A stretch of 64,000 nucleotides of DNA, from contig JANXYU010000003.1 in NCBI GenBank assembly GCA_025355855.1, positions 88,713 to 152,712 on the forward strand, given 5' to 3'. The DNA is from Actinomycetota bacterium (GTDB lineage Bacteria; Actinomycetota; JAHEXW01). The translations under genes and the position numbers were made by a program. The notes below the pieces were generated by a model. The model worked only from the letters and a program-made list of their open reading frames with translations. It was not told where the DNA came from and searched no databases. Positions 4,648 to 64,000 of the stretch are shown piece by piece (within the stretch, counting starts at the first letter, position 1; every line of letters starts with the position of its first letter).

Positions 4648-6291
4648 ATGGACGGTTTGTGGACGTTTATGCTGATCTGGGGTGTTTGGATCCTGCTGCC
4701 GATTCTGGTGGACGGGTCAGACACACTTCTCAGGCTATTCGTTGTGCTGCTTTGGGGACGCAAGAAAATCCGGCCGACTGTCGCCGACGCCGACTTGCCG
4801 TTCGTCTCCATCCTTGTGCCCGCGTATAACGAAGACCAAGTCATCGACCGCTGTTTGAACTCGATCAAACTGCAGGACTATCCGCACGACAAGATGGAGG
4901 TCATTGTAATTAATGACGGTTCGAGCGACCTTACCGCGGATAAGGTTCTAAGCCATATCGACGGCCGCGAAGTCGGCATGCGCGATCTTAACCAGCGCGA
5001 TCCCAAGGGCGCCGTAAGCGATGCGGGCGAGGTTTTCAGGGTCGTACCGCCGGGCATCTATCGCAGTAAAGACATCGTCGTTGACGAAGAATCCCGCCGC
5101 CCGAAGCACGACGAAGCCCTCTTGGAAGGCAAGTATGTCGACGTCCCCGAATTCAGCGGCGAGATGACGCTCATTAATAACCACCACTTTGGCAAACCGA
5201 CCGCGTTAAACTCGGGCATCTCACAGATGAACGGGAGTCAGATAATCTTTACGGTCGACTCCGACGTCGTTCTTGATGGCGGCGCGGTACGCAATATGGT
5301 CTACGCGTTTCTGGATGATCCCAAATTGGGCGCAGCGACCGGACACATCGAGATATCCGAGGATATCGTGGAGGAACGCGACGAACTTGGTAACCTTGTC
5401 TTAGATGAGAAGGGCCACCTGATTCGCAAGAAGATGAACTTTATGCAAACCGCTTTGACGCGTCTCCAATTCCTGGAGTATTTGGACGCGTTCCGGCTCG
5501 GGCGGCAGTTCCAGGCGACGATCGGTTCCGCATACATCTTGGCGGGCGCCTTCTCCGCATTCAGGCGCAGCACCCTTATGAAGACCGAACTCTATAAACC
5601 GCGCACGGTCAGCGAGGATTTTGACTTGACCGTCGATATCCATGAAACCGGCGAGAAAGTCGGTTATGTCGCTGAATCTAAGGCCTTGCTGGCGCCTGTC
5701 ATTAACGTCAATGCTCTGTATTCCCAGCGTGTGCGCTGGTGCAGAGGACAGCTGGAAGTAGCCGGGGCGCACCAGAAAGTAATCGGCAACCGGCGTTATG
5801 GCATGGTTGGCTGGTTCGGTTTTCCGCAGATGCTGATTACCGATCACACCTTAAGTTTTCCCAGATTGATCTGGACGATTCTGATCATCATGTTTCCGCT
5901 CTTCGGTTATCCTGTTAGCACAGTCACACTGGCCCTATTGTTTACCTATGCGTTTTATGTTGTGCTTAGTTTCATGCAAACCTTCGCCGCCTACGTGATA
6001 GTAGATGGGGAAACAAAACGCAAGACGGAACGGGCCTTGGGTTGGTGTTTCGCCTTACCGTTCTACCGCTTGGTCGTATTCTACTTCCGGATGTCCGGCT
6101 ACTTGCGAACCCTTACTGAGCCAGCCGGTTGGGACATCACGTCTAAGACTTTGGTTAACGCGAACGCGAATATCGACAGACTGAAGGACGGGGCCGCCGG
6201 GATGCTCCGTACCTACAAAAGAACCGCCCATGGCGTCGCCGCCATCGTACGCTCCGTCATGATGCTCGTCCTCTTGTTCGTGCGGGACTAG
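4648..6291 (+). CDS. processive family-2 glycosyltransferase (membrane-embedded polysaccharide-synthase type)
   Basis: Motifs VPAYNED, DGSSD, GKPTALNSG, TVDSDVV (DxD), SEDFDLT, QRVRWCRGQ (QxxRW). N- and C-terminal TM helices. An ~90-aa insertion sits between DGSSD and GKPTALN. Confidence 0.75.
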   Translation: MDGLWTFMLIWGVWILLPILVDGSDTLLRLFVVLLWGRKKIRPTVADADLPFVSILVPAYNEDQVIDRCLNSIKLQDYPHDKMEVIVINDGSSDLTADKVLSHIDGREVGMRDLNQRDPKGAVSDAGEVFRVVPPGIYRSKDIVVDEESRRPKHDEALLEGKYVDVPEFSGEMTLINNHHFGKPTALNSGISQMNGSQIIFTVDSDVVLDGGAVRNMVYAFLDDPKLGAATGHIEISEDIVEERDELGNLVLDEKGHLIRKKMNFMQTALTRLQFLEYLDAFRLGRQFQATIGSAYILAGAFSAFRRSTLMKTELYKPRTVSEDFDLTVDIHETGEKVGYVAESKALLAPVINVNALYSQRVRWCRGQLEVAGAHQKVIGNRRYGMVGWFGFPQMLITDHTLSFPRLIWTILIIMFPLFGYPVSTVTLALLFTYAFYVVLSFMQTFAAYVIVDGETKRKTERALGWCFALPFYRLVVFYFRMSGYLRTLTEPAGWDITSKTLVNANANIDRLKDGAAGMLRTYKRTAHGVAAIVRSVMMLVLLFVRD

Positions 6292-10642: not shown

Positions 10643-10690
10643 CCAAACAGCTTTAGGTATTAGCAAAGATTTTTAGTTGCCCTGCTTTCG

Positions 10691-10790
10691 TGCTTTAAAG
10701 CGCTAAAGCGGCGCTACTTCAGCGCTACGTAGCGCTGAAGTGTTTCGTGCACAGGACTCACTTCACCGCTATGTAGCGGTGAAGTGGAAC
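10691..10790. repeat. palindromic repeat cluster (CTTTAAAG and AGCGCT cores; perfect 24-bp palindrome CTTCAGCGCTACGTAGCGCTGAAG at 10717..10740; variant CTTCACCGCTATGTAGCGGTGAAG at 10761..10784)
   Basis: Read directly. Lies between convergent wecB and the nfnB-like gene. The same family recurs at 28398-28520, 36127-36156 and 49578-49601. Confidence 0.8.
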
Positions 10791-10833: not shown

Positions 10834-12270
10834 TTACGGACGGGGTTGTTGCAGATATGCGTCAATGGATTTGGCGGCGCGTTTACCGGCGCCCATTGCC
10901 GCGATAACCGTCGCGCTGCCGGTGACTATATCACCGCCAGCGAAAACGCCCGGGAGGCTGGTCTGGCCGGTGGCTTCGGCCGCCGCTATATAACCGCGGT
11001 CGGTAAGGTTTAAACCGGGGGTCGCGTTACCGATGAGCGGGTTGGCGCGGGTGCCGATGGCCATAATCACCGTGTCGACGTCTAACACAAACTCCGAACC
11101 GACTACCTCGAAAGGACGACGGCGACCGCTGGCGTCGGGCTCACCCAGCTCCATAGTTATACAACTAAGTCCGGAGACTCGGCCGCTGTCGTCTCCCAAA
11201 ATCTCGATTGGGTTGTTTAGCAGTTTGAACTCGATACCTTCATCCCCGGCGTGGTGAACCTCTTCGGCGCGGGCGGGCAACTCTTCGAGGCTCCGCCGGT
11301 AAACAAGATAGACATGTTCCGCGCCAAGGCGCATCGCGACGCGCGCGCTATCGATTGCGACATTGCCGCCGCCGACAACCGCGACATTCTTCCCGCGGGC
11401 GATGGGGGTGTCATATTCGGGGAATAAATAAGCTTTCATGAGATTGGCTCGAGTCAGAAACTCATTAGCGGAATAGACGCCGTTCAGATTCTCGCCGGGA
11501 ATGTTCATGAACATGGGAAATCCCGCACCTGACGCGATAAAGACGGCGTCGTAGCCATGGTCAGACATTAGTTCCTTAACACCGAATAAATGGCCGATCA
11601 CGGCGTCTGTTCTAATCTCGACGCCCAGGCCTTTTATGTACTCGACCTCGCTTTTAACGATGTCTTTAGGCAAACGGAATTCGGGGATGCCGTAGACAAG
11701 CACCCCACCCGGCTCGTGCAGCGCCTCGAACAGTGTCACCGCATAACCCAGCCGCGCCAAATCGCTGGCGCACGTCAGTCCGCCGGGTCCGGAGCCGACA
11801 ACGGCGACTTTCTTGTTAGACGCGAGGCGTGAGACGCGAGGCGTGAGTTGCCTTCCGGCTTGTTCTCGCTCATAGTCAGCCACAAATCTCTCCAAGCGGC
11901 CAATAGCCAGCGGCTCGAAACGTTTGCCGAGAACGCAGCCGTTCTCGCATTGCTTCTCTTGCGGACAAACTCGGCCGCAAACCGCGGGCAGAGCGTTATT
12001 TTCTTTTATCTTTTGGGATGCTTCGGCAAACTTGCCCTCTTTGACCAGAGCGACAAATTCCGGGATAGGTACCTCAACAGGACACCCTGCCTGGCAAGTC
12101 GGTTTACGACAGCTAAGGCAGCGGGCGGCTTCCGCCAGCGCGTCTTCTTCTGAATAGCCCAGCGCGACTTCCTCGAAATTGCGAGCGCGCCTCTTGGGGT
12201 CCTGTTCCGGCATCGGTCGGCGCGACTGCTTGGGAGAGGGCGCGCGCTTTTCTATTTCTGACACTGGCAT
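10834..12270 (-). CDS. NADPH-dependent glutamate-synthase-small-subunit-like flavoprotein (NfnB/SudA-type)
   Basis: N-terminal 2x Fe-S Cys clusters (CLSCRKPTCQAGCPVEVPIP..., CGRVCPQEKQCENGC) and two Rossmann motifs (VAVVGSGPGGL, VAVVGGGNVAID). Confidence 0.75.
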   Translation of the reverse strand: MPVSEIEKRAPSPKQSRRPMPEQDPKRRARNFEEVALGYSEEDALAEAARCLSCRKPTCQAGCPVEVPIPEFVALVKEGKFAEASQKIKENNALPAVCGRVCPQEKQCENGCVLGKRFEPLAIGRLERFVADYEREQAGRQLTPRVSRLASNKKVAVVGSGPGGLTCASDLARLGYAVTLFEALHEPGGVLVYGIPEFRLPKDIVKSEVEYIKGLGVEIRTDAVIGHLFGVKELMSDHGYDAVFIASGAGFPMFMNIPGENLNGVYSANEFLTRANLMKAYLFPEYDTPIARGKNVAVVGGGNVAIDSARVAMRLGAEHVYLVYRRSLEELPARAEEVHHAGDEGIEFKLLNNPIEILGDDSGRVSGLSCITMELGEPDASGRRRPFEVVGSEFVLDVDTVIMAIGTRANPLIGNATPGLNLTDRGYIAAAEATGQTSLPGVFAGGDIVTGSATVIAAMGAGKRAAKSIDAYLQQPRP

Positions 12271-13100
12271 GCCTCCCCGCCGTGATAATGGTCCAAGGCC
12301 AAACGTTCTTGTTCCACATAGCCGCGCAGACGCATCGCCAACTGATCGAAGTTAACGGCGTGACCGTCGAACTCGGGCCCGTCGGCACAGGCGAATTTTG
12401 TCTCTCCGGCGACTTCGATGCGGCAGGCGCCGCACATCCCGGTGCCGTCAACCATGATGCAATTGAGGCTGACAACTGTTTTGACCCCGAACGGACGCGT
12501 CGTATCGGCGCAAAACTTCATCATTGGCCCCGGCCCGATGGCCACGACCAGGTCGATGTCTTGACGTTTTTCGAGGGTCTCCTTGAGAGGTTCGGTGACA
12601 AGAGCGCACCGGCCCCAGGTGCCGTCGTCGGTCGTGGTGATAAACTTGTCGCAGACTGAGGCTAGTTTGTCTTCCATGATCATAAGGTCTTTGGTGCGGC
12701 AACCGATGATTCCGATCACATGATTGCCCGCGTCGCGCATTGCCCTGGCAATCGGATATACGGGGGCGATGCCGACACCTCCGCCGATGACGATAACATT
12801 TTTGCCGACGGGAATGTGGCTCGGCCGACCCAACGGGCCGGCCAGATCCAAAAGAGCTCCGCCGGCGTCGTAGCAAGCGGCCAGTTCTTCGGTCGTTTTA
12901 CCGACGACCTGGAAAACGATGTCGACCGTCCCGGCCGCGGCGTCGAAATCGGCGATGGTCAAAGGAATGCGCTCGCCTCGTTCGTCTAAACGCAATATGA
13001 CGAATTGTCCGGCCTGCGCGGCGCGGGCAATGTCGGGCGCTTCCACCGTATACTGGTATATGCCATCCGCCAGTTGCTCCTTCTTAAGGATGCTGAACAA
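12252..13100 (-). CDS. ferredoxin-NADP reductase-like subunit with C-terminal [2Fe-2S] (NfnA/SudB-type)
   Basis: FAD/NAD-binding PDR-like fold (VILRLDERGERIPLTIADFD...IIGGGVGIAPVYPI) and a C-terminal Cys cluster CIMVDGTGMCGACR...C. Overlaps the NfnB-like gene by 19 nt. Confidence 0.75.
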   Translation of the reverse strand: MFSILKKEQLADGIYQYTVEAPDIARAAQAGQFVILRLDERGERIPLTIADFDAAAGTVDIVFQVVGKTTEELAACYDAGGALLDLAGPLGRPSHIPVGKNVIVIGGGVGIAPVYPIARAMRDAGNHVIGIIGCRTKDLMIMEDKLASVCDKFITTTDDGTWGRCALVTEPLKETLEKRQDIDLVVAIGPGPMMKFCADTTRPFGVKTVVSLNCIMVDGTGMCGACRIEVAGETKFACADGPEFDGHAVNFDQLAMRLRGYVEQERLALDHYHGGEACQCQK

Positions 13101-19676: not shown

Positions 19677-20996
19677 CTAGCGGCTATTCTTGGCGGCGAG
19701 ACGGGCCTCGGCCGCGGCGGCTTGACCCTCTTCGTACTCGGCCAACTCGGCCAATAACTCAGAGTATACACCCAAAGTGGTCAAAACGGTCTTCTTTAGG
19801 TCGAATTGTTCTTCACTGCGGCGACGGCCGGCTACGCCCATTTGCACAGCCACGTCCTTGTTCTGAAGGAGATACACGACCGCTTGGGAGATGGCCAGAG
19901 GCTTCTTGGGCGGTACTAGGAACCCGGTCTCTCGGTCAAGTAAGGCCTCTGGAATTCCCCCAGTCATGGTGGACACGACAGGTTTACCGGCGGACATAGC
20001 TTCCAGCAGGCTATAGGGCATGCCTTCCACCATGGACGGCAGAACGATCACGTCGGCCGCGGCCATGATATCGCGCGCATCATCCCGCCAACCGGTGAAT
20101 ATGACCTTCTTGTGAATGCCGAATTTTTCAGCCATGATTTCCAACTCGTGTTTCTGTGGCCCGTCGCCGATGACCATGAACTGCGCGTTAGGGAATTCGC
20201 GCAGAATATGCGTCGCTGCGGTTAACAGGTATTTGACGCCCTTTTGGTTGGTTAAGTGGCCGACCGTGACAATTAACGGTGCGGCGGCATTGAGGCTGAG
20301 CAGGTCTTTGACGTTCAGGATGCGTCGAGAGGCATTGGCGCCCGAAGACAACGGCCGGACGCCGGCGGGCACGACGACTACCTTTGATCCCTCGATCTTG
20401 CCCTTTTCCAAGATTCGCTTGCGCAGCGACTTGGATACCGCAATCACCTTGTCGACCAGGGCCGGCATATATCGTTCCGCGATGTCGAAATAGAGGTGCT
20501 TCATCCTGCCCTCGCCCTCATTCAAAATAAAATCATGCAGGGTAACCAGGGTGAGGCGCGTCTTGGCCCGCCGCGCGGCCAAGCCGGCGATAAGCCCGGC
20601 CTTATAGCCATGCGCGTGGACTAGACGGATTTCCTCGTCACGGACGATTTTGGCCAGCTTACGCGATACCGACCAGTCCTCAAAAAGAGCCAAACGATCA
20701 TCGAATTCAAGCGGGAATGTAATGATCTGGGTTTTCTTTAGATCCTCAACGACGGAACCGCGCGGTCCCGCGACATAGACGCGATAACCTTCCTTACCGA
20801 GTTTCTCGATCAACGCCAACAGATAAGCCTTTACTCCGCCCTCAAAAGCGCGAGTAATTATCAGAACCTTGGTTGACCCGTTGTTCTCGAATTCCAGTTC
20901 TACCGGGACGGCTTTCGAGTCCGTATCGTCGGCCGCGTTGCCGGCAGAGAAGAATCGTCCCATGAGGTGTTTGAATCGAGCGGCGAGATCAGTCAA
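19677..20996 (-). CDS. family-4 glycosyltransferase (GT-B, EpsD/WcaL-like)
   Basis: C-terminal GT4 signature ...IVLPSMVEGMPYSLLEAMSAGKPVVSTMTGGIPEALLDRETGFLVPP. Confidence 0.8.
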   Translation of the reverse strand: MTDLAARFKHLMGRFFSAGNAADDTDSKAVPVELEFENNGSTKVLIITRAFEGGVKAYLLALIEKLGKEGYRVYVAGPRGSVVEDLKKTQIITFPLEFDDRLALFEDWSVSRKLAKIVRDEEIRLVHAHGYKAGLIAGLAARRAKTRLTLVTLHDFILNEGEGRMKHLYFDIAERYMPALVDKVIAVSKSLRKRILEKGKIEGSKVVVVPAGVRPLSSGANASRRILNVKDLLSLNAAAPLIVTVGHLTNQKGVKYLLTAATHILREFPNAQFMVIGDGPQKHELEIMAEKFGIHKKVIFTGWRDDARDIMAAADVIVLPSMVEGMPYSLLEAMSAGKPVVSTMTGGIPEALLDRETGFLVPPKKPLAISQAVVYLLQNKDVAVQMGVAGRRRSEEQFDLKKTVLTTLGVYSELLAELAEYEEGQAAAAEARLAAKNSR

Positions 20997-27784: not shown

Positions 27785-28204
27785 CTACACCAGCTCTTTG
27801 CCGGTTGTGGTCATAGTTAGGCGGCCATGCTTAACGCCTTTCGTCCCGATCAACCGGTCGGCAGCGGCTTTGATATCCGCATTAGGACCTTTGACGATCA
27901 GTACCTCCAGGCAGTTATGGGCATCCAAATGAACGTGGACGGTGGAAATGATGGCTTCATGCAGGCTATGCTGCAGGTCGGTAAGGGTGTCTTGCAGGTC
28001 ATGGACATGATGATCATAAACTAAAGTAATCGTCCCGACCGTTTCAGCGTCGCCGCCGGCCCATTCCTCTTCAACAAGAAGATTCCGGACAAGGTCGCGA
28101 ATCGCTTCCGACCGGTTTCCGTATCCTTTAGCTTCGATGACATCATCAAACTTGGCGAGCAGATCATCGTCCATCGCCACACCGAACCGCACCGTCTTGG
28201 CCAC
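27785..28204 (-). CDS. nikR: nickel-responsive regulator NikR
   Basis: Ribbon-helix-helix N-terminus ([23 protein letters not shown]) and C-terminal His/Cys Ni site YDHHVHDLQ...[11 protein letters not shown]. Confidence 0.8.
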
Positions 28205-28228: not shown

Positions 28229-28279
28229 ATCCTTGCGCCAATCGTGCATAGCACTTGCCACGTCTTGCGCCAATCGTGT
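28229..28279. promoter_or_regulatory. two direct copies of CTTGCGCCAATCGTG, 36 bp apart, upstream of nikR; candidate operator or promoter element
   Basis: Read directly at 28229..28243 and 28265..28279. Confidence 0.3.
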
Positions 28280-28397
28280 TACCGAATGGAATTATCGTAG
28301 CACGCCATTAACTCGGGGGCAAGACACGCTTTGGCACGTTAACGCGCTGAAGTTCGACCCGGATGCAGTGCTTCAATGTTTTAAGCAGTAACGTGTT

Positions 28398-28520
28398 TGC
28401 TTTAGCGCTTTAAAGCACTACAGCGCTCCAGCGTAGGGATTCGATTACTTCAGCGCTACGTAGCGGTGAAGCGTCCAACGTGACGGTTCGATTACTTCAG
28501 CGCTACGTAGCGGTGAAGTA
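28398..28520. repeat. palindromic repeat cluster: GCTTTAGCGCTTTAAAGCACTACAGCGCT followed by two tandem ~47-bp units, each containing the near-palindrome CTTCAGCGCTACGTAGCGGTGAAG
   Basis: Read directly; 24-mers at 28448..28471 and 28495..28518; lies between the cooC/acsF-like gene and nikR. Confidence 0.8.
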
Positions 28521-28548
28521 ATCGATAAGTATTTAGAGAGAGGTCATT

Positions 28549-36031: not shown

Positions 36032-36126
36032 GCAGCCAACCGCGCTCAATTCCATGTCAATCTTTTCGCTCGACAACATTGTCTTCCTGAGCATAATCCT
36101 GATTGAAAATGAGGTAAAGCGCGTAA

Positions 36127-36156
36127 GCGCTTTAGTGCTTTAAAGCACTAAAGCGC
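36127..36156. repeat. perfect 30-bp palindrome GCGCTTTAGTGCTTTAAAGCACTAAAGCGC (same repeat family as 10691-10790 and 28398-28520)
   Basis: Read directly; between convergent paralog-1 and tspO genes. Confidence 0.85.
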
Positions 36157-36176
36157 TCTGGGCTAAATGGGAAGAG

Positions 36177-36584
36177 TTAGGCGTTCTTTATCGTTATTGT
36201 CAGTTGCAATATGGTCGCGAAGGCGACCCAAGCTAAATAAGGGATATTCGCCAGCGCAACCCAAGGGGTGTACGGCCAGATGGCCAGCATTAGCCAGACT
36301 AGAGTGACCAGCACGAGCAGGATGTCGACAGCGGCCAAGACGTTACTGCGGAGTCCGAATTGCAGCGGGGTAAACGCGAAGTTGAATATCAGGTTCAAGA
36401 TAAAGGGGAGAGCCACGACCAGCGGGACACGACCTTTGGCCGCCAGATAGCCGACATAGCCAAATGAAACTGCAATGACTAGATATAGGACAGACCACAC
36501 CGGACCGAACAGCCAGGACGGGGGTGCCCAGGCCGGCTTAGTAAGATGTTGATACCAAGTGTACGAGCTCTCTTGTGTGACCAT
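36177..36584 (-). CDS. tspO: TspO/MBR tryptophan-rich sensory protein
   Basis: WYQHLTKPAWAPPSWLFGPVWSVLY is the canonical TspO N-terminal signature; 5 TM. Confidence 0.85.
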   Translation of the reverse strand: MVTQESSYTWYQHLTKPAWAPPSWLFGPVWSVLYLVIAVSFGYVGYLAAKGRVPLVVALPFILNLIFNFAFTPLQFGLRSNVLAAVDILLVLVTLVWLMLAIWPYTPWVALANIPYLAWVAFATILQLTITIKNA

Positions 36585-36626
36585 AGCGAAAGTATAACCG
36601 AATCAACTAGTTTACGTACCGTGAGT

Positions 36627-37034
36627 TTAAGTCGACTCTCGCATCGCGGCCATGGCGGACTGCTCGCGTTCCTCCATCGGCGTAAAACCTTCCATGATTC
36701 CGAATTTGTTGCCTTCGGTGTCTTCGCAATAGCGGAAGGTCCCGACGTTCATGATCTCTTGCCTATCGGTCAAGTTTTTTCCGCCCGCTTGCTCAATCGC
36801 TTTCGAGGCCTCGTCCAAGTTCTTTACCTCCAGCGTCAAAATGACCTCTGGTTTTTCGCTAGCCATAATCGCGCCGTTGATTCCCGGCTCCTTATCCGAA
36901 CCGGTCGCGGCCAGCCAATAGTCATCGGGGCCTTCCCAAGTGCTAATGTCCCAGCCGAAAACGTCGTGGTAAAAGGTCACCGCGCGCGCCGGCATCGGAC
37001 CAGCTATCTCGAAATGTATTACCCTTCCCATCAT
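36627..37034 (-). CDS. VOC-family (glyoxalase/bleomycin-resistance fold) protein
   Basis: VIHFEIAG...FYHDVFGWDIS...EDTEGNKFGIME. Confidence 0.7.
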   Translation of the reverse strand: MMGRVIHFEIAGPMPARAVTFYHDVFGWDISTWEGPDDYWLAATGSDKEPGINGAIMASEKPEVILTLEVKNLDEASKAIEQAGGKNLTDRQEIMNVGTFRYCEDTEGNKFGIMEGFTPMEEREQSAMAAMREST

Positions 37035-37164
37035 GGGCCTCCTTATGTAAAGGGATTTCCCGGATACGAGCCATTATCGCACTTCCGCAAGGGAATTTAA
37101 CCACTCTGGGGTTAAGACTAGGCGGATTACTAGCCTGATATTGGACACCTATAGAATGCCTATA

Positions 37165-37198
37165 CAGTCTATTGTCTAATTAATTGGACAATAGACAG
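37165..37198. promoter_or_regulatory. inverted repeat GTCTATTGTC-N10-GACAATAGAC upstream of the VOC gene; candidate operator
   Basis: Read directly (cagtctattgtctaattaattggacaatagacag). Confidence 0.3.
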
Positions 37199-37236: not shown

Positions 37237-37917
37237 TTAATGGATAGTGATTGACGCGGTGATTTGGTAGGCCTCGGCGTCGTGCATGACATAGTAATCG
37301 ACGCCTTTATAGTTAAGGTCGGCCGCGTAGGTAAACGTGTAGACTTTGCGGTTTTTGATCGTCCACAACGTTGTTCTCTTGAAAGGTTGGCCAACCTCGA
37401 CGTATGTATCGACCACCTGGATTGCCGGATTCGAGTCCAGTGTGGTCTCGATCTGGCTGGTCACGTCCCCGCCGCCTTGGGGAGCCTGACGCGCCGCGGC
37501 GACGTAGTCCTCCAGTTTTGCCGCCGCCGGCACCGTCTCGACAAAGACGGTATAGGTGCACTCGTTTTGGTAGGGGCTGCCGGCCGCCATCGCCGGTCCC
37601 AGAAGCGCTGCCCGCAACGTGTCCGCGACAGTCTCAGTCAACGTCCAGTTCGGCGGATATAGGAGGGTGGTGCCCCACGTCTTGTTGGAATACGTCTGCC
37701 AACCTTTATATGGTCCCTCGTCTGTCGGGTTGGAGGCGGTGTCGGTCGCGACCGGTTTCGTCGCGGTAGAAGTTGCCGCGTTGGTAATGGCGGACGTGTC
37801 CTTTATGGCTGAGGGCAGCCGGTACATAGCCAAGATAATCGCCAGCACAGTAAGCGTCACCGCTATTGCCGCAATTATGCTGGCTTTATTTTCCTTAACG
37901 AACCTGCTCTTGGCCAT
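37237..37917 (-). CDS. membrane-anchored paralog 2 (distant; domain begins PYKGWQTYSNKTWGTTLLYPPNWT)
   Basis: N-terminal TM, Thr/Ala-rich linker, shared motif with paralogs 1 and 3. Confidence 0.45.
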   Translation of the reverse strand: MAKSRFVKENKASIIAAIAVTLTVLAIILAMYRLPSAIKDTSAITNAATSTATKPVATDTASNPTDEGPYKGWQTYSNKTWGTTLLYPPNWTLTETVADTLRAALLGPAMAAGSPYQNECTYTVFVETVPAAAKLEDYVAAARQAPQGGGDVTSQIETTLDSNPAIQVVDTYVEVGQPFKRTTLWTIKNRKVYTFTYAADLNYKGVDYYVMHDAEAYQITASITIH

Positions 37918-40843: not shown

Positions 40844-43564
40844 TCACTTTTGCGATATCTTCGCGGCTGCGACCTTTAGCTCCGGGATCTTCGCTACCGG
40901 ATCTAACGCCGGATTCGTGACCGCATTGGCCGCCGCCTCCGCGTAGTGGAACGGCATATATATAACCCCAACCGGCACATCCTCCGTTAGCCGCGCCTTC
41001 GCCGTCACGCTGCCGCGCCTCGTCGTAACCGTCACCGACCGCTTGTTCTTCACCCCGTACTTCTTCGCGTCAGCCGGATTGATGTCGACCCTGGCCTCCG
41101 GTTCGATCTCGTTTAAGCCGTCGACCTTCCTGGTCATCGTGCCTGTGTGCCATTGAGCCAGGTAGCGACCGGTGGTCAAGATTAGCGGATACTTGGCGTC
41201 TGTGACTTCCGCAGGCGGTTTGTAATCGATGGCGTGGAATTTGCCTTTGCCGCGGGCGAACGTTTCCGTGTGCAGGATTGGCGTGCCCGGATGGCCGGGC
41301 GTCGGGCAGGGCCAGTGAATGCCGCAAACTTCGATCCGATGATGGCTGATGCCGCCGTACGCGGGTGTGACCGCCGCGATCTCTTCGAAGATGGCAGCCG
41401 ATGAATGGTAGTTCATTTTGTAACCGAACTTGGACGACACCAGACCGATGATCTTCCAATCGCTCAAAGCCTCGCCAGGCGGTTGGATGGCCTTACGGAC
41501 CGGTTGGACGCGCCGTTCGGTGCTGGTGAACGTACCGGACTTCTCCGCGAAGGTCGCGGCCGGCAGGACGACGTCGGCCAGCCGCGCCGTTTCTGTCAAG
41601 AAGATATCCTGGACGACCAGGAAGTCTAGGCCTTTCAGACCGGCGATAATGTGGGCCTGGTCCGGCTCGGACAAAATGGGGTTCTCGCCCATGATGTACA
41701 TGGCGCGAATGCCGCCCTTGGCCGCCGGTGTGCCGGCCGCTCTAGTCATCTCCGTGGCCGTTAACCCGGGTTTTTTCGGCAACTTCCGGCCCCAGGCCGC
41801 CTCAAATGATTTTCGAACACCGACATCGGCGACACTTTGGTAGCCCGGGTAAACGTTCGGCAGGGCTCCCATATCGCAGGCGCCCTGGACGTTGTTCTGG
41901 CCGCGCAGGGGGTTGACGCCCATACCAGGTTGGCCGATGTTCCCGGTCATCATCGCCAGGTTGGCTAGAGTCATGACGTTGTCCACGCCGGTCGTGTGCT
42001 GAGTGATGCCCATGGCGTAGATGATGGTCGCTTTGTCCGCGCCAGCGTAGATCTCCGCCGCGCGAACGATGTCGGCCGCCGGAATGCCGGTGATTGATTC
42101 AACGTAGTCGGGCGTGTATTTTTCGACCATGGCCACGACGGCCGCGAAGCCCTCCGTCCTCTCTTTGATAAACGATTTATCGGCCAGGCCGATATCCAAA
42201 ATGACGTGCATTAAACCATTGATGAGCGCGACGTCGGTGCCCGGTTTCTGAGACAGCCACATGTCGGCGTATTTTACCAACGGGATCCGGCGCGGTTCCG
42301 CCACAATCAAACGGGCGTCTTTGTTCTTTACAGAGTCGATGATGTTCAAGCCCAGAATGGGGTGGGCCTCGGTCGTGTTCGAGCCAATGACCAGAATGAC
42401 GTCAGCCTCCCCGATGTCCTCCAGGGAATTCGTCATCGCCCCGCTGCCAAACGCCGCGGCCAGACCGGCCACCGTTGGGCTGTGTCACAATCGAGCGCAG
42501 TTGTCGATGTTGTTCGTACCGACCCCCGCGCGGGCAAACTTTTGCATCAGGTAATTCTCTTCGTTGGTACATTTGCTGGAGGAAAGGAAGCCGATGGCGT
42601 CGGCCCCGTATTCCTGTTTGGTTCTCTTCAGTCCGGCGGCGACGGCCGCGATGGCTTCGTTCCACGACGCCGGCACCAGCTCCCCGTCCTTGCGTATTAA
42701 TGGGGTGATCAGACGGTCCGGGCTGTTCACGAAACCGTAGCCGAAGCGGCCTTTCACGCACAGGTCGCCCTTGTTGACCGGAGAATCCTCCCGCGAGGTG
42801 ACGCGCACGATGTGCTGGCCGTCGGTTTCCAAGACTATGGCACAGCCAACGCCGCAATACGGACAGGTGGTGACCGTTTTCTTGAGGTCTTTGCTGCGGC
42901 CCCGGTAGCGGCTGGGCTTCTCAGTCAACGCGCCGACGGGGCAGACCGAGACACAGCGCCCGCATTGGACGCATTCGGTTTCCGGTAGGGGACGGTTAAG
43001 GGCGGACGTGACCATCGTGTCAAAGCCGCGTCCCATGTAGTCGATGACCTCGCAGAACTGGAGCTCCTGACACGCCTGAGCGCAGCGGTAACATTTCACG
43101 CATTTTTCGAAATCCCGGACAATGAACGGGTTGGCGGTATCGATGGGATAACGGTTGCGCCGCCCCCGGAAACGGGAATCGGCGACCTGATATTCATAAG
43201 CCAGGTCCTGCAGTTTACAATGTCCGCTCTGTTCGCACGTCAGACAATCGCCGGGGTGATCGGAGAGCAACAGCTCCAGCACCAGTCGGCGGGCGGCCAC
43301 GGCGCGGTCGGTATGGGTCAGCACCCGCATGCCCGATTCGGCGGGACGGGCACAAGCCGCGATCAATGGACGGCCCGGACCCTCGCCCTCCAGCTCGACG
43401 ACGCAAAGACGGCACGCGCCGGTCGGCGTGAGATGCCGGTGGTTGCACAGATGAGGAATATCGACCTTGGCCTTATGGGCGGCTTCCATGATGGACGCGC
43501 CGCGATGAATCTTTACGGGCACGTCGTTAATGAACAGGGAAACTGTATCGGACTTTCTAGCCAC
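40844..43564 (-). CDS. fdhA: selenocysteine-containing formate dehydrogenase catalytic subunit (FdhF/FdhA-like; N-terminal 2Fe-2S/4Fe-4S ferredoxin modules + Mo/W-bis-PGD domain), in-frame UGA at 42487..42485
   Basis: Two track ORFs (42485..43738 and 40844..42472) are in the same frame, separated by TGA + HSPT. The joined sequence ...[30 protein letters not shown] matches the E. coli FdhF Sec140 context NCARV-U-HGPSVAGL. The likely start is GTG 43564 with a GGGAGG RBS, overlapping the NuoF-like stop by 8 nt. Confidence 0.85.
42445..42487 (-). promoter_or_regulatory. bacterial SECIS element directly 3' of the fdhA UGA
   Basis: mRNA UGA CAC AGC CCA ACG GUG GCC GGU CUG GCC GCG; the GCC-GGUCU-GGC hairpin with GGUC apical loop is at the same register as the E. 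coli fdhF SECIS (UGA CAC GGC CCA UCG GUU GCA GGU CUG CAC). Confidence 0.65.
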
Positions 43565-45287
43565 GGTTGGCCTCCCGATTCGCGGGCCGCCGCTTGCAAA
43601 TGCCATGCGGGCATTTCTTGTGTTCGATATGGGCGACGTATTCATCGCGGAAATATCGGATGGTGGACAAGACCGGGTTGGGCGCGTTTTGGCCCAGGCC
43701 GCAGAGAGACGTGTCGCGCACCACGGCCGCCGTCTCAATCAACAGGTCGATGTCTTCAATTTTCCCGTTGCCGCCGGCGATGCGTTCCAAAATCTCCAGC
43801 ATGCGGGTAGTGCCGACGCGGCAGGGGGTGCATTTGCCGCACGATTCGGCCGCCGAAAACGCCAGAAAATAGCGGGCGATATCGACCATACAGGCGGTTT
43901 CGTCGAGAACGATGACGCCGCCGCTGCCCATGATGGCCCCGACTTTGCTCAAGGTGTCGTAGGTCACGGACAGATCCAGAAATTCGGCCGGGATACAGCC
44001 GCCGGACGGGCCGCCCATCTGAACCGCTTTGAATTCCTTACCGTCGATGATGCCGCCACCCAGGTCGAAGATGAGCTCACGCAGGGTGATGCCCATCGGG
44101 ACCTCGACCAGTCCGGTGTTGTTCAGCTTACCAGCCAGGCTGAAGACCTTTGTGCCGCGCGAGGTACCGGAGCCCATGTCGTTGTAGACATCGGCGCCGC
44201 GGCCGATGATAACAGGCACGTTGGCCAGGGTCTCAACGTTATTGATGCAGGTTGGTTGGCCCCAAAGTCCGGCTACCGCCGGATAGGGCGGGCGGGGGCG
44301 GGGTGTGCCGCGTTTGCCCTCCAAACTGGCGATCAGCGCGGTTTCTTCCCCGCAGACGAACGCGCCGGCGCCTTCCTTGACCGTAATGTCGAAGTCGAAG
44401 CCGGAGCCCAAAATGTTCTGGCCGAGCAGGCCATATTTTCGCGCCTGGTCGATGGCCAGGGTGAGATGCTCGACGGCGATGGGATATTCCGCGCGCACAT
44501 AGATGTAGCCTTCGGACGCGCCGATGGCGAAGCCCGCAATGATCATGCCTTCGATGACGGCGTGCGGATCGCCCTCCATGACGCCGCGATCCATAAACGC
44601 GCCGGGGTCGCCCTCGTCGCCATTGCAGATGAGATATTTCGGTTTGGATCTTTCCTTGCGCGCCAGGCGCCACTTCAAAAAGGTCGGGAAACCGGCGCCG
44701 CCGCGGCCGCGCAGGCCGGACGCCTCCAGTTCGTTTATGATGCCGTTGGGGGTCAACCTTATCAGGGCGCGCGCCGCCGCCGCGTAGCCGCCAGTCCGGA
44801 TGTAGGCGTCGAGGGAGCGCGGGTCGACGCGACCAAGGTTGCGCAACACGCTGCGTTCCTGCGCCTTATAGAACGGGACTTCGGCGGCTTGTGTTATCGG
44901 CTGGCCGGTGGCCGGGTCTTTGTAGGCCAGGCGGTTAATGGGTTTTTTGTTTAATATGGTCTTCTGCACTATCTCCGGAACGTCGGCCGGTTTGACCTGG
45001 CCGTAGAAGATGCTGACTGGATCGATCTCGATGACGGGCGCCTGGGCGCAGAAACCGTGGCAGCCTGTTTCAACGACTTCGATGTTCTTGCGCTCGGCCG
45101 CCGGGAGCCTGGCGATTTCTTTGGCGAGCGCCGCGGAGACCGCGTCGGCGCCTGACGCCCGGCAACCGGTCATGCAGACGCGGACCCGCGTCTTATTCGG
45201 GTCGTAAGCCGTCTGCAAACGGTTACGCAAAGCGTTGAGGTCAGTCCGCGTATTTAGTTTTTGCGTGTTCGGTACGTTCTTTGGCAC
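43557..45287 (-). CDS. NuoF/HydB-like NAD(P)H-binding flavoprotein subunit with N-terminal thioredoxin-like [2Fe-2S] and C-terminal 2x[4Fe-4S] (formate dehydrogenase beta / HylB-like)
   Basis: GRGGAGFPT, FMN/NADH motifs, C-terminal CGKCTPCR...CGLGQ; GTG start with AGGAGC RBS. Confidence 0.85.
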   Translation of the reverse strand: MPKNVPNTQKLNTRTDLNALRNRLQTAYDPNKTRVRVCMTGCRASGADAVSAALAKEIARLPAAERKNIEVVETGCHGFCAQAPVIEIDPVSIFYGQVKPADVPEIVQKTILNKKPINRLAYKDPATGQPITQAAEVPFYKAQERSVLRNLGRVDPRSLDAYIRTGGYAAAARALIRLTPNGIINELEASGLRGRGGAGFPTFLKWRLARKERSKPKYLICNGDEGDPGAFMDRGVMEGDPHAVIEGMIIAGFAIGASEGYIYVRAEYPIAVEHLTLAIDQARKYGLLGQNILGSGFDFDITVKEGAGAFVCGEETALIASLEGKRGTPRPRPPYPAVAGLWGQPTCINNVETLANVPVIIGRGADVYNDMGSGTSRGTKVFSLAGKLNNTGLVEVPMGITLRELIFDLGGGIIDGKEFKAVQMGGPSGGCIPAEFLDLSVTYDTLSKVGAIMGSGGVIVLDETACMVDIARYFLAFSAAESCGKCTPCRVGTTRMLEILERIAGGNGKIEDIDLLIETAAVVRDTSLCGLGQNAPNPVLSTIRYFRDEYVAHIEHKKCPHGICKRRPANREANRG

Positions 45288-45550
45288 CTAGCTCCTAAAG
45301 TGTGTCTCCCGATAAGAAAGACTATATCTGGCGGGTCCACCCCCACCTTTCATCCTCCCCCTTCCCGTAGGGGGAGGAAAAAACTAAACCAAAGCTCTAA
45401 AACTGTCCACCTCCTAGGAGGAGGAAATAAATATATGTACTTCCCGTTAGGGAATCGATTGCACTTCTTCTAGCGTCCCCCAAGGAGAGGCAAATATCTA
45501 GTCGCTCGTCTTAAATAATTCGACGCGCGGGTGAATCGAATACACTGTCC

Positions 45551-45644
45551 GGCGGGTGGCGCGACTGGGGGGACCCCCAGATCGCGCGCAGGCCACCGAT
45601 CGGCGAGCACGATATGGGGGAAGTCTGTCGCGACAGGACCCGCC
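45551..45644. repeat. ~90-bp TIR-bounded structured repeat (copy A): GGCGGGTG...CTGGGGGGACCCCCAG...GACAGGACCCGCC
   Basis: Read directly; aligns with copy B (46920..47010) and partial copy C (50677..50715); inside the 400-bp nuoE/nuoF spacer. Confidence 0.7.
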
Positions 45645-45690
45645 GGATTTCACTCCCGCACCTGCTCGTCACTCTTTAAGAACGCGAGCG

Positions 45691-48742: not shown

Positions 48743-50665
48743 TCACTCCTTGATGGCGATCATGGCCGGTTCGAGACCCAGTTCGGTAAGTGTGGCTTGG
48801 ACGGATGCGACGCGGGCGATCGTCCGGTCGCGGGCAGTGCCGAAGAAACAACCTTCCTCGGGACACAGCGACACGTTCACCTTAGCCGCGCCGGCCCGCA
48901 GTGCTTCCAGCATCAATAGTTCGCTGACCTGACCGATACACATCGCGGGGACAATCGTGTGACCTTGCGGGAGCTCGTCAGCATCGTTATAAAGACGGTT
49001 CATGCAGTAGAAATCGACCTGTTTCGCGGCCGCCGCGGCGGCAACGGCCTCGTCAAGCAGACGTTCCTCTTGACCGCGCCGGAGTGTAATGGCGCCGGCC
49101 GGACATTCGGTGGCGCACAGACCGCACGCCTGGCATTCCGCTGTATCAATGACAGCGACATTGTCGGCGCCGATCTTCGGAATCTCAAAAGGACAGACGC
49201 GCACGCACGTTAAACAGGCAATACATTTTTCCGGGTCAACTACCGCGCCGGACAGGCAAGCCATGCAGCGCAAACCCTCACGCGCCGCCTCGACCTCTGT
49301 TAAACCCGGCTCGAACAGCTCGAAGTCCCGGACGCGATCGGCGGACGGGCGCGTCATGCCGGTGCGGCGCTGGCGGGCCGGCACGAGCGGACGCATCCGC
49401 TCGGGCAAGTCGGCTAACACGGCCGGCTCGTAAACGGCAGCCGGTTTGCCGGTTAGAAACGCGGCGACGGCCGCGGCGACAACATGGCCGTTCTGTACCG
49501 CACCGATGGCGCTCCCTGGCCCGGTCGCGAACTCCCCTGCCATGAAGACATCCCGCGGTTGTTCTTTCGTTATGTCAACTTCAGCGCTACGTAGCGCTGA
49601 AGTGTCCCGGCCTTGGCCGATAGAGACAATAACGGTCTCACCGGCTACTGTCAAGAATTTGTCGGGGACGAATTGCGGGTCGAAACGGCCTTCTTCGTTG
49701 AATACGCGTGACACGGCCTGACAGGTAAGACCCTCGACCGAGGCGCCGGAGCTGACTAGTTTTGATGGACCGAGGCAGCAGTTCAGGTTGACACCTTCGG
49801 CGGCCGCCTCTTCGATCTCCCAATCATGCGCTGGCATTTTATCGCGCGACTCCAGGCAAACCAGGTTTACCTCCTTGGCGCCCAACCGGACAGCGGTCCG
49901 GGCAACGTCAATGGCAACGTTGCCGCCGCCGACCACGATGACCCTACTTTTGAGCGCCGGCGGATTCCCCGCCTTGACGGCTTTCAAAAACGGGATCGCG
50001 GTGTAGACGTTATCGCCTTCTGTCGGGAAAACGGGCAGGCTGCGGGAAAAAGGCAAGCCGGTCGCGATAATGACTCCGTCATTATCGGCTCTTAATTCGT
50101 CGATACTAAAATCTTTGCCAAGCTCTTGACCATATTTGATTTTAACCCCGGTCGCAGCGACTTCATTGATATCACAGTCAAGTGCCGTGTCTGGGAGGCG
50201 ATAGTTTGGGATGGTAAGGCGAAGCATACCGCCGGCTTTGGGCTCGCGTTCGAAAACGGTGACCTTGTGGCCGGCCGCGACCAGGTCTTGGGCGGCGGTA
50301 AGGCCCGCGGGCCCGGCCCCGATGATCGCGATACGTTTGGCCTCTCCACCCAGATTCCTTCTTTGCATGTGGAACTGTCCGTTCGACGCTGACTCAGGAT
50401 CTGGCCCGCAGGCTTCGCCGAATGCCGCTGCGGCTCGTTTAAGTTCCATGATGGAGATCGGCTGGTCGACTGAGGCGCGGCGGCAGTTCTGCTCGCACGG
50501 GCGGAAGCAGATATAGCCGCAGCTATTGGAGAATGGATTGGTCAGGCGCGCGACGTCGTAGGCTTCGGTGAAACGGCCGAGCGCCGTCAGGGCCACGTAG
50601 CCCTGAACGTCGGTAAATGCCGGACAAGCCGCCTGACACGGCGGCACAAAATCACGCATAAACAC
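48743..50665 (-). CDS. GltD/NfnB-like FAD-NAD(P) flavoprotein fused to a 2x[4Fe-4S] ferredoxin and an MvhD/FlpD-like domain (MetFV-associated electron-transfer subunit)
   Basis: N-terminal FVPPCQAACPAFTDVQGY...CGYICFRPCEQNC, Rossmann motifs IAIIGAGPAGL and VIVVGGGNVAID, then CIACLTCVRVCPF/CQACGLCATECP and a Cys-rich tail. Confidence 0.6.
   Translation of the reverse strand: MFMRDFVPPCQAACPAFTDVQGYVALTALGRFTEAYDVARLTNPFSNSCGYICFRPCEQNCRRASVDQPISIMELKRAAAAFGEACGPDPESASNGQFHMQRRNLGGEAKRIAIIGAGPAGLTAAQDLVAAGHKVTVFEREPKAGGMLRLTIPNYRLPDTALDCDINEVAATGVKIKYGQELGKDFSIDELRADNDGVIIATGLPFSRSLPVFPTEGDNVYTAIPFLKAVKAGNPPALKSRVIVVGGGNVAIDVARTAVRLGAKEVNLVCLESRDKMPAHDWEIEEAAAEGVNLNCCLGPSKLVSSGASVEGLTCQAVSRVFNEEGRFDPQFVPDKFLTVAGETVIVSIGQGRDTSALRSAEVDITKEQPRDVFMAGEFATGPGSAIGAVQNGHVVAAAVAAFLTGKPAAVYEPAVLADLPERMRPLVPARQRRTGMTRPSADRVRDFELFEPGLTEVEAAREGLRCMACLSGAVVDPEKCIACLTCVRVCPFEIPKIGADNVAVIDTAECQACGLCATECPAGAITLRRGQEERLLDEAVAAAAAAKQVDFYCMNRLYNDADELPQGHTIVPAMCIGQVSELLMLEALRAGAAKVNVSLCPEEGCFFGTARDRTIARVASVQATLTELGLEPAMIAIKE
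49578..49601. repeat. perfect 24-bp palindrome CTTCAGCGCTACGTAGCGCTGAAG embedded in-frame in the 48743..50665 CDS (encodes TSALRSAE)
   Basis: Identical to the intergenic palindrome at 10717..10740. Confidence 0.85.
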
Positions 50666-63270: not shown

Positions 63271-64000
63271 TTAGGCCAGCCCCAGCACGATTGCAACCAG
63301 CAACGCTACCGTAAGAGCGATGATAAATACGGTCGTGGCCCAGGCGATGACGTTGAAAACCTTGCCGTTGACGTGGTCGCCCATTATTTCGCGGTCGTTG
63401 GCAATACTCATGACATAGAAAAGGATGATCGGCATCAACACGCCGTTAAGGGTCGCTGACAACAGAAGGATCGACACTAACGGAACCCCCGGAATCAAAA
63501 CTACGGCGCCGGCGGCCAGAATGAAGAAGCCGAGCAGGCCGTAAAACTGGGGCGCCTCAGCGGCCGTGTTATCGATGCCCGCTTCCCAGCCAAACGCCTC
63601 GCATGTCGAGTAGGCGCTCGTTAGTGGCAGAATTGACATGCCGAGCAGGGCGGCGTTGGCCAAGCCGAAGGCAAATAGCGTCGCGGCGAACCCGCCGGCC
63701 AGCGGGCGCAGTGCGAGCGCTGCGTCTTTGGCGTCGTTAATTGATTTTCCAAAGACCCAGATGGTCGCGGCGCAGGCAATGATGATAAAGTACGCGATGA
63801 AATCGGTCATGAAGGCCCCGAAAAAAACGTCGCCGCGCGCGATATTGAGCTCGCGGATACTCATTTTTTTATCGACAGCATAGCTCTGGATGAAGAACTG
63901 GCCCCAGGGCGTGATCGTGGTCCCGACGGTCGCAATAAACACTATCAGGTAGTCCTTGCTAATCTTAAAGGTGGGGAGAACAGAGCCCTTGGCTGCCGCG
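63271..64000 (-). CDS. Nramp-family divalent-cation transporter, C-terminal ~240 aa (gene continues beyond window end)
   Basis: The frame is open to position 64000; TM-rich; the C-terminal region LNGVLMPIILFYVMSIANDREIMGDHVNGKVFNVIAW resembles the MntH tail; the TM6-like segment reads FIATVGTTITPWGQ. Confidence 0.7.
   Translation of the reverse strand, partial: AAAKGSVLPTFKISKDYLIVFIATVGTTITPWGQFFIQSYAVDKKMSIRELNIARGDVFFGAFMTDFIAYFIIIACAATIWVFGKSINDAKDAALALRPLAGGFAATLFAFGLANAALLGMSILPLTSAYSTCEAFGWEAGIDNTAAEAPQFYGLLGFFILAAGAVVLIPGVPLVSILLLSATLNGVLMPIILFYVMSIANDREIMGDHVNGKVFNVIAWATTVFIIALTVALLVAIVLGLA

Follow-up and report, generated by a model that had tools for sequence, protein, structure and literature searches.

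How does a perfect palindrome, one that also stands in intergenic DNA 39 kb away, come to be read as protein within an otherwise conserved enzyme? The question is raised by a 64,000-nucleotide stretch of DNA from an uncultured member of the Actinomycetota (assembly GCA_025355855.1, contig JANXYU010000003.1, positions 88,713 to 152,712; hereafter the window), in which the gene of a flavoprotein of the Wood-Ljungdahl cluster contains a perfect 26-bp palindrome, ACTTCAGCGCTACGTAGCGCTGAAGT, at positions 49578-49603. The first-pass annotation of the window had taken it for a mobile repeat captured as an in-frame insertion of eight residues. Here, we compare the palindrome-encoded segment with its counterparts in related genomes and arrive at a different explanation: the segment belongs to a family of dispersed palindromes that resemble repetitive extragenic palindromes (REPs), it adds nothing to the length of the protein, and it is probably, although with considerable room for doubt, an old resident of a variable loop that has been overwritten at constant length by variants of its own family. 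Selfish palindromic DNA would thus be translated as part of an enzyme central to acetogenic carbon fixation, in an uncultured lineage of actinomycetes. The case also carries a caution: a repeat within a gene may be perfectly identical to an intergenic one without having been inserted recently.

The palindrome, located by sequence match, is alike on both strands. On the coding (-) strand of the gene it reads ACT TCA GCG CTA CGT AGC GCT GAA GT, which in phase 0 from codon 355 onward gives T355-V363, the peptide TSALRSAEV; the surrounding coding sequence (48743-50665) is an intact open reading frame (ORF) of 640 aa, and the in-frame reading given by the first-pass annotation is therefore correct. 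So is the identity that it reported with an intergenic copy, because its 24-mer (CTTCAGCGCTACGTAGCGCTGAAG) has exact matches at 49579-49602 and 10717-10740. Its coordinates were, however, one base low, and the true palindrome has 26 bp; the gene copy and the intergenic copy at 10716-10741 are in fact identical over 28 nt, with GT following the palindrome in both. At a threshold of three mismatches or fewer the window contains five copies of this sequence, which we call family A (10717, 10761, 28448, 28495 and 49579), against none in 100 dinucleotide-preserving shuffles of the window, and chance is therefore no explanation for these repeats. Since the palindrome is perfect, either strand offers two open reading frames, the third being interrupted by TAG. 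As RNA, the gene copy folds into a stem of 11 bp closed by a loop of 4 nt (-27.8 kcal/mol in an 81-nt context, z = -2.9).

Look-ups of the neighboring genes led to the Logan assemblies of run SRR22198310 and to a second metagenome-assembled genome (MAG), GCA_043725015.1, at 99.4-100% identity. The Logan contig L086 carries the identical palindrome at 5802-5827, in the homologous gene, where the sequence on either side of it is unique. Over 5.9 kb, this contig and the window are separated by 12 substitutions and a single 21-nt indel; as four of the 12 substitutions recur in the second MAG, L086 represents a second haplotype, and the gene palindrome is thus present in both. Four of the differences from L086 fall within 10 nt at 49538-49547, about 30 nt from the palindrome, and change VFMAG to VFTAG between the separate haplotypes; three more are grouped at 49829-49840. 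Recombination over a short tract, or a unitig assembled from mixed strains, may account for such clusters.

The flavoprotein combines a GltD/NfnB-like FAD/NAD(P) module with a 2x[4Fe-4S] ferredoxin and an MvhD/FlpD domain (Pfam Fer4_20, Pyr_redox_2, Fer4 and FlpD), and aligns over its full length with its homologues. Its gene lies on the (-) strand between acsC and metV-metF, in a Wood-Ljungdahl cluster with the order fhs, RACo, cooC/acsF, folD, acsD, acsB, acsC, flavoprotein, metV, metF, acsE, followed by NuoE/F-like genes and a selenocysteine-containing FdhA; this gene order is identical in relatives, and among the genomes of the species collection the closest one ("MAG: Actinomycetes bacterium isolate nzgw113") has a protein of 85% identity. 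The palindrome encodes the first half of a hypervariable loop of 21 residues (residues 352-372, GRDTSALRSAEVDITKEQPRD; positions 49550-49612 of the (-) strand), which was delimited by conservation and by an AlphaFold2 model. The palindrome segment stands at the 6th percentile of conservation among 9-mer windows and is thus among the least conserved of the protein. In the model (mean predicted local distance difference test score, pLDDT, 85.9) the loop is coil with a pLDDT of 56-68, falling below 50 at residues 361-363, and it is flanked by a strand at 349-352 and another at 373-375, the latter leading into the FAD motif AGEFATGPG. The loop is thus hypervariable and predicted to be disordered, a tolerant position in an otherwise conserved protein. 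The first-pass annotation had placed the segment between the core and the ferredoxin module, which is slightly off: it lies within the GltD-like module, before the final FAD motif and about 110 residues upstream of the ferredoxin module.

Does the palindrome lengthen this loop? We took the conserved motifs GQ and [VIL]F as the borders of the loop and counted the residues that separate them in the 120 best homologues. The window protein and 15 of the 18 other clade homologues (these homologues are designated below by P numbers, and DNA loci by L numbers) have 21 residues, which is the modal length of the clade; other lengths are found in P0002 (22 residues; 85% identity), P0006 (13), P0016 (19) and the distant homologues (30-34, mostly 33). 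An alignment of 25 homologues, the very comparison that the first-pass annotation had proposed as a check, places residues of every clade member opposite the nine palindrome residues, and none has been gained. At the DNA level, the 85% orthologue has in this place an unrelated sequence of equal length plus one codon, with good identity resuming on both sides, and the GAC that flanks the gene palindrome on either side is an Asp codon also in this orthologue, which lacks the element. No direct repeats occur at the flanks of the intergenic copies. On the strength of the census we reject a simple insertion, and the earlier argument that 24 bp would preserve the frame becomes moot: the shared unit is 26-28 bp long, and the segment replaces rather than adds.

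Related genomes contain variants of the same family. In the genome of P0007, the intergenic DNA carries a perfect copy of a variant that we call A3, ACTACAGCGCTACGTAGCGCTGTAGT, in the form CC-ACTACAGCGCTACGTAGCGCTGTAGT-GG (L092:20830-20859, core 20832-20857), which is one symmetric change away from A, together with a degenerate copy resembling a second variant, A2, at about L092:20097-20122. A perfect A2 (ACTTCAGTGCACTAGTGCACTGAAGT) is found in the genome of P0003, 2 nt after the stop codon of the orthologous flavoprotein gene (L094:4872-4897). A2 and A are identical in their outer 7 nt and differ in 4 of their 6 inner pairs, every change being compensated. Among 1.03 Mb of fetched loci, only these genomes contained a generic family motif; some 0.9 Mb of loci, drawn from about 80 unrelated genomes, had none. 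Scans with CTTCASCGCTAYRTAGCGSTGAAG gave no hit in the genome collection and, in the metagenome collection, one unrelated hit that is AT-rich and terminator-like, but this pattern was too strict and misses the A2 and A3 variants found in relatives; the species-specificity that it suggested is wrong, and the family appears from these copies to be clade-wide. Two further palindromes came to light. An AT-rich metagenome contig (Ga0209514_10000090, L002:3750-3773) carries CTTCACCGCTATGTAGCGGTGAAG, identical to the window's variant at 10761, at the end of an ORF and with A- and T-runs at its flanks like those of a bidirectional terminator; this match is probably due to chance or convergence. The genome of P0015 (46% GC) has, in its long cooC-folD spacer, a 26-nt hairpin, ACTCCCATGCTC-AA-GAGCCTGGGAGT (L095:3764-3789), with the length and the ACT...AGT ends of family A, which may be that genome's version of the family.

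The decisive question is then what the orthologous genes contain at the position that the palindrome occupies in the window. For each orthologue, the 26 nt from the Thr codon onward were scored against the family variants, with 3712 in-frame windows of the same genes as controls; the highest identity among the controls was 14-15, and none reached 16 or more. The gene of P0007 (L092) is identical to A2 in register at 18 of 26 positions and that of P0003 (L094) at 17 of 26, and that of P0004 (L089) matches A at 14 and A3 at 15. Ten distant homologues average about 7/26, the control level; constraint acting on the wider protein family therefore does not explain the signal and was ruled out as its cause. 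A parallel test compared the loops with the peptides that the variants would encode (TTALRSAVV for A3, TSVH*CTEV for A2), using 11,608 9-mers as controls. P0008 (TTAPYSGVV) matches the A3 peptide at six of nine residues, a level that no control attains (0/11,608), P0004 matches it at five (control rate 9e-5), and P0007 and P0009 match the A2 peptide at five, again without any control at this level. Where A2 has an in-frame TAG, all four A2-like loops (P0003, P0007, P0009 and P0011) have CAG (Gln), as would be expected of a repeat adapting to a reading frame. In a tree built without the loop, the A3-like P0008 falls inside the A2-like subclade, and P0002 is the sister of the window protein with a completely different loop. 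The orthologues thus hold other family variants or decayed relics in the same register, which is difficult to reconcile with the one-off capture originally supposed. The fit of the window's own peptide to the clade profile is weak and was judged post hoc (whole 9-mer, rank 55/632; left arm TSAL, 19/637; right arm, 252/636).

Hairpins also recur at this position. P0007, at 65% identity, has a perfect 11-bp stem, CACTATCGTGC-ACCAGG-GCACGATAGTG, which starts at the corresponding Asp-Thr codons and is the best hairpin of its whole gene; compared with A2, it differs at three positions per arm, all fully compensated. In P0002 (L001) the corresponding codons form an 11-bp stem with one mismatch, GGTGCTTTGGT-GGGA-ACCAATGCACC, and P0003 has P0007's loop sequence with two uncompensated mismatches in the stem. 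No hairpin is present at these codons in P0004 or P0015, the sole stem in P0005, of 7 bp, lies farther into the loop, and in P0006 the segment is deleted.

We suggest the following history. Small REP-like palindromes, built of ACTNNAGCGCT modules in inverted pairs, would be common to a clade of uncultured Wood-Ljungdahl Actinomycetota, and one of them would have occupied the loop position since before the lineages of this clade split. It would then have been overwritten repeatedly, without a change of length, each time by the variant then current in the genome concerned: A in the window, A3-like sequences in P0004 and P0008, and A2-like ones in P0003, P0007, P0009 and P0011, with a different hairpin in P0002 and a deletion in P0006 as other outcomes. 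The copy in the window, being identical to an intergenic copy 39 kb away, would be freshly homogenized. The route may have been short-patch gene conversion or a hairpin-for-hairpin strand exchange carried out by whatever enzyme mobilizes the family; when a 26-nt palindrome overwrites a 26-nt palindrome, the length of the loop is unchanged, unlike in a plain insertion. The protein would tolerate the element for two reasons, namely that the palindrome can be read through in two frames out of three from either strand and that nothing constrains the loop; the copy in the gene is most likely a neutral passenger. The presence of the element, its membership of the family, the unchanged length of the loop, its disordered and variable character and the likeness in register of orthologous loops to family variants are observations, whereas conversion as the mechanism, the direction from repeat into gene, and neutrality are inferred.

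Several observations weigh against it. The closest relative, P0002, matches A at chance level (9/26 in L001), L001, L091 and L095 as a group reach an insignificant 9-11/26 to the family variants, and P0005 and P0015 have neither family similarity nor a hairpin at the position; the likeness of the P0002 hairpin to the second family of the window, family B, is not significant either (p = 0.05-0.1). The in-register matches come from the DNA of seven orthologues with shared ancestry and are thus not independent, and the conserved Thr codon (ACN) slightly inflates them. The nine palindrome codons do have an atypical composition, with G or C in third position in 2 of 9 against a typical 6-7, and rank within the bottom 1.4% of the gene's 9-codon windows and the bottom 2.4% when all genes are considered, but this is only a moderate signal (p = 0.014-0.024). 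No close strain shows a pre-conversion allele, and conversion itself is unobserved. The window's 57 ORFs include no transposase or RAYT gene: no Y1_Tnp domain was found by Pfam among the 49 ORFs submitted and the genes called in the fetched flanks, and the Wood-Ljungdahl genes were read through the precomputed domains of the orthologous locus L001, where only the expected domains appear. Finally, the compensated differences between P0007 and A2 could point to selection on the hairpin instead.

The competitor that survives best, although we hold it to be unlikely, is a recent and single event in which the intergenic A was copied into an unrelated loop, replacing 26-27 nt either by an insertion and a deletion or by templated repair, while the family likeness of the other orthologues is a coincidence or the product of protein-level constraint. 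The 28-nt identity with the copy at 10716, the unrelated sequence of L001 at this point, the unusual codons of the segment and a possible 4-nt ACAC microhomology at the left junction all speak for such an event. It must, however, have been exactly length-neutral by chance, and it leaves without explanation both the matches of P0003, P0004, P0007, P0008 and P0009 to different variants, in register and above all or nearly all controls, and the hairpins at the corresponding codons of P0007 and P0002.

Selection for structure takes these hairpins as its starting point, and it seems to us a slightly weaker candidate than the single recent event. A hairpin in the operon mRNA or in the DNA would be functional, in pausing, processing, stability or protein binding, with its sequence free to drift and the protein loop merely its carrier. 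Stems of 11-13 bp at corresponding codons of three orthologues with different sequences speak for it, as do the stable RNA stem of the window copy and the full compensation of the differences both between P0007 and A2 (three per arm) and between A and A2 (4/6 inner pairs). Against it stand the two uncompensated mismatches that separate P0003 from P0007, the want of a hairpin at this place in P0004, P0005 and P0015, the deletion in P0006, and the lack of any Rfam match or terminator-like U-tract. Nor is the loop region, when 40-nt windows are folded along these genes, the most stable part of any of them, although this test is non-discriminating in genes so rich in GC. A compound of this idea with the one that we favor, to which we give marginally less credence again, is that the hairpin rather than the peptide is maintained, acting at the level of RNA or DNA and kept in step with the dispersed family by conversion, for example as an intra-operon signal for processing, stability or pausing or as a site for a factor that recognizes ACTNNAGCGCT; if this were true, a protein-coding stretch would be evolving in concert with non-coding repeats.

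The original proposal of an in-frame insertion of 8-9 codons has become improbable, as it now needs an earlier deletion of nine codons in the same lineage. P0006 does demonstrate that a loop shorter by eight residues is viable, and the window loop without its nine palindrome residues would have about the length found in P0006. Nonetheless, the closest relative and 15 homologues are of full length, so that two events at one exact junction are required; in addition, the shared unit of 26-28 nt is no multiple of three, and the family-like sequences in register in the orthologues are left aside. Less credible still is the reverse direction, in which the dispersed family was born from the coding segment, as a de novo REP derived from a coding quasi-palindrome. 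Similarity alone gives no direction, the left arm encodes the clade-typical T-x-A-L (rank 19/637), and the flavoprotein gene does contain a natural quasi-palindrome with 19/26 identity to A (50584-50609). Yet several variants are perfect in the intergenic DNA of genomes in which the loop of the gene holds another variant or a decayed one, the four copies within genes all have CAG where A2 has its in-frame TAG, and the two families, A and B, have one module in common and form clusters between genes. An artefact of assembly or consensus at such a repeated palindrome is conceivable in a metagenome-assembled genome, and one Logan contig (L088) does stop precisely at the intergenic copy. It can be practically dismissed, as an independent Logan contig of a distinct haplotype spans the gene palindrome with unique flanks, and neither the reading frame nor the alignment along the full protein is disrupted.

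Within the window, the dispersed palindromes are of two families. Family B has the consensus AGCGCTTTAGTGCTTTAAAGCACTAAAGCGCT; its arms consist of the 11-nt module, ACTNNAGCGCT, that also makes up those of family A, with the pair inverted the other way round (arms ACTTCAGCGCT in A and ACTAAAGCGCT in B, the latter ACTACAGCGCT in the second cluster). The 64 kb hold five copies of A and three of B, with none expected by chance. The first cluster (B'-A-A', 10681-10786) lies between the convergent genes of a UDP-GlcNAc 2-epimerase and an NfnB-like protein, and consists of a degenerate B (GCTTTCGTGCTTTAAAGCGCTAAAGC, 10681-10712), the intergenic ACTTCAGCGCTACGTAGCGCTGAAGT at 10716-10741, which the second MAG (L087) and L088 likewise contain, and the A variant CACTTCACCGCTATGTAGCGGTGAAGTG at 10759-10786. 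The second cluster (B''-A-A, 28396-28525), 3' of a cooC-like gene, opens with the B variant GCTTTAGCGCTTTAAAGCACTACAGCGCT at 28396-28427 and continues with an A variant bearing two mismatches (28447-28472) and another that is extended to a 38-bp palindrome (TCGATT-A-AATCGA, 28488-28525); this last copy is a tandem duplicate of its neighbor with a 47-bp period. A perfect 32-bp B, AGCGCTTTAGTGCTTTAAAGCACTAAAGCGCT, stands alone between convergent genes at 36126-36157. The 13-nt half-site of A never occurs on its own in the window, only within full palindromes.

Two likenesses between the family and its surroundings may be recorded. The intergenic copy identical to the gene copy stands 93 nt downstream of the stop codon of the NfnB-like gene, which belongs to an NfnB-like (Fer4_20 + Pyr_redox_2) and NfnA-like pair (10834-13100, (-) strand) that is paralogous to the N-terminal module of the flavoprotein; no evidence was found that this is more than coincidence. 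The quasi-palindrome at 50584-50609 encodes the invariant N-terminal D-V-Q-G-Y-V-A-L-T of the flavoprotein, frame 2 of A would encode LQRYVALK, and about 0.03 such hits would be expected per 64 kb; the likeness is probably a coincidence arising from self-complementary codon pairs (Q/L, G/A and Y/V).

Other identities for the family A palindrome were considered and set aside. It does not match the 16-bp parS consensus of ParB (TGTTTCACGTGAAACA); a canonical parS-like site, CGTTTCACGTGAAACA, lies elsewhere, between jag and mnmE (L083:1440), and because dnaA and dnaN (L083:4485-7176) follow 3-8 kb beyond position 64000, the window is origin-proximal. The half-sites of A also differ from those of the NikR operator, whose published box is GTGTTAC-[N13/14]-GTAACAC or GTATGAT-[N13/14]-ATCATAC, upstream of nickel genes (PMC545781). 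A proper NikR box is found elsewhere: GTGTTAC-N14-GTAGCAC at 28276-28303 agrees with the published box at 13/14 positions, lies about 75-100 nt upstream of nikR (27785-28204, (-) strand), which precedes genes of a cbiM/nikM-type transporter, and is probably an autoregulatory operator. An uptake-signal half-site (DNA uptake sequence or uptake signal sequence) was discarded, the 13-nt arm occurring solely inside full palindromes; CRISPR, as there are two repeats per cluster and no array; a known RNA family, with no Rfam match in the window; an intrinsic terminator, none having been found in cluster 1; and restriction-site avoidance, as AGCGCT occurs 25 times against 20.9 expected, with no bias beyond the repeats themselves.

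A few features outside the family deserve mention. Between the genes at 36546-37100(+) and 37237-37917(-) lies a 30-bp near-perfect palindrome, GTCTATTGTCTAATTAATTGGACAATAGAC (37167-37196), which looks operator-like and is unrelated to A and B. The NuoE-like and NuoF-like genes are separated by a 400-bp spacer (45288-45690) with pyrimidine/purine hairpins whose arms contain a GGAGG resembling a Shine-Dalgarno sequence (TCCTCCCCCT...AGGGGGAGGA at 45353-45378, and TCCTCCTCCTAGGAGGTGGA); the spacer of the 85% relative has only 11 bp, and a 34-bp palindrome similar to family B, GCTTTAGTGCGTTACCGCGGTAAAGCACTAAAGC, extends across the junction (L001:14920-14953). An in-frame TGA at 42485-42487 on the (-) strand, in the context N-C-A-R-L-U-H-S-P-T-V, joins the ORFs 42485-43738 and 40844-42472 and reads as the selenocysteine codon of a single formate dehydrogenase alpha subunit; the gene is therefore split in mechanical ORF lists, as it is in the annotation of P0007's genome.

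How does this palindrome compare with the known repeats that enter genes? The Rickettsia palindromic elements (RPEs), which Ogata and colleagues reportedly described in 2000 in work that PMC3733652 and PMC10969869 cite, are said to be selfish palindromic DNA lying in frame in genes and tolerated at surface positions, common to orthologues and decaying at different rates; RPE-1 is said to measure about 100-150 bp and to add 30-50 residues. The likeness is that of in-frame palindromic DNA at a tolerated position, here a poorly conserved loop, but the present element has 26 bp, encodes nine residues and brings no net gain. The bacterial interspersed mosaic elements (BIMEs), the clusters of the E. 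coli REPs, are intergenic mosaics in which palindromic units alternate in orientation and the spacers vary. A similar arrangement is seen in the B-A-A' clusters (10681-10786 and 28396-28525), although the sequences are unrelated and the host here is an uncultured actinomycete. The Coxiella QMITE2, one of the MITEs (miniature transposable elements with inverted repeats), is sometimes found in frame within ORFs (PMC5896051). The present repeats share with MITEs their small size, their non-autonomous nature and their occasional presence in reading frames; MITEs, however, have 100-400 bp, terminal inverted repeats and target-site duplications, whereas our element is a palindrome only, with neither internal sequence nor duplication. 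Of the label REP/MITE-like that the first-pass annotation had chosen, the first half can thus be kept, for a family of REP-like palindromes with intergenic clusters, and the second abandoned.

The closest resemblance is to the REPs of the GTAG/CGTC superfamilies (Di Nocera et al. 2013), short palindromes of 20-40 bp that lie mostly 3' of genes, between convergent or co-directional ORFs, and often cluster in alternating orientation; a minority are wholly inside ORFs, in frame and plausibly in flexible loops, and in two Xanthomonas species different REPs occupy about one site of recB (PMC3733652). The size, the clusters, the in-frame intragenic copies, the different repeats at one site and the placement, mostly 3' of genes or between convergent ones (10681-10786, 28396-28525, 36126 and L094:4872), are all found here. 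But the GTAG/CGTC REPs carry, as their defining feature, an unpaired terminal tag at one end, whereas in A the CTAC/GTAG is central and paired, and A2 (…GCACTAGTGC…) and B likewise lack a terminal GTAG/CGTC tag; a RAYT gene, moreover, was not found near the present repeats. We have therefore filed the element as a REP-like intragenic palindrome, with the reservation that it has neither the GTAG/CGTC tag nor a net insertion. Published intragenic REPs are described as adding residues, whereas here the length of the loop is unchanged and the variants at the site differ between genomes. Constant length and different variants in register suggest an intragenic repeat that has been repeatedly rewritten by its dispersed relatives, and this would be a concerted evolution of coding sequence and repeats, a more specific proposition than an insertion tolerated in a loop. 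Intragenic REPs and RPEs in general have already been described; what is unusual here is the record of turnover in place.

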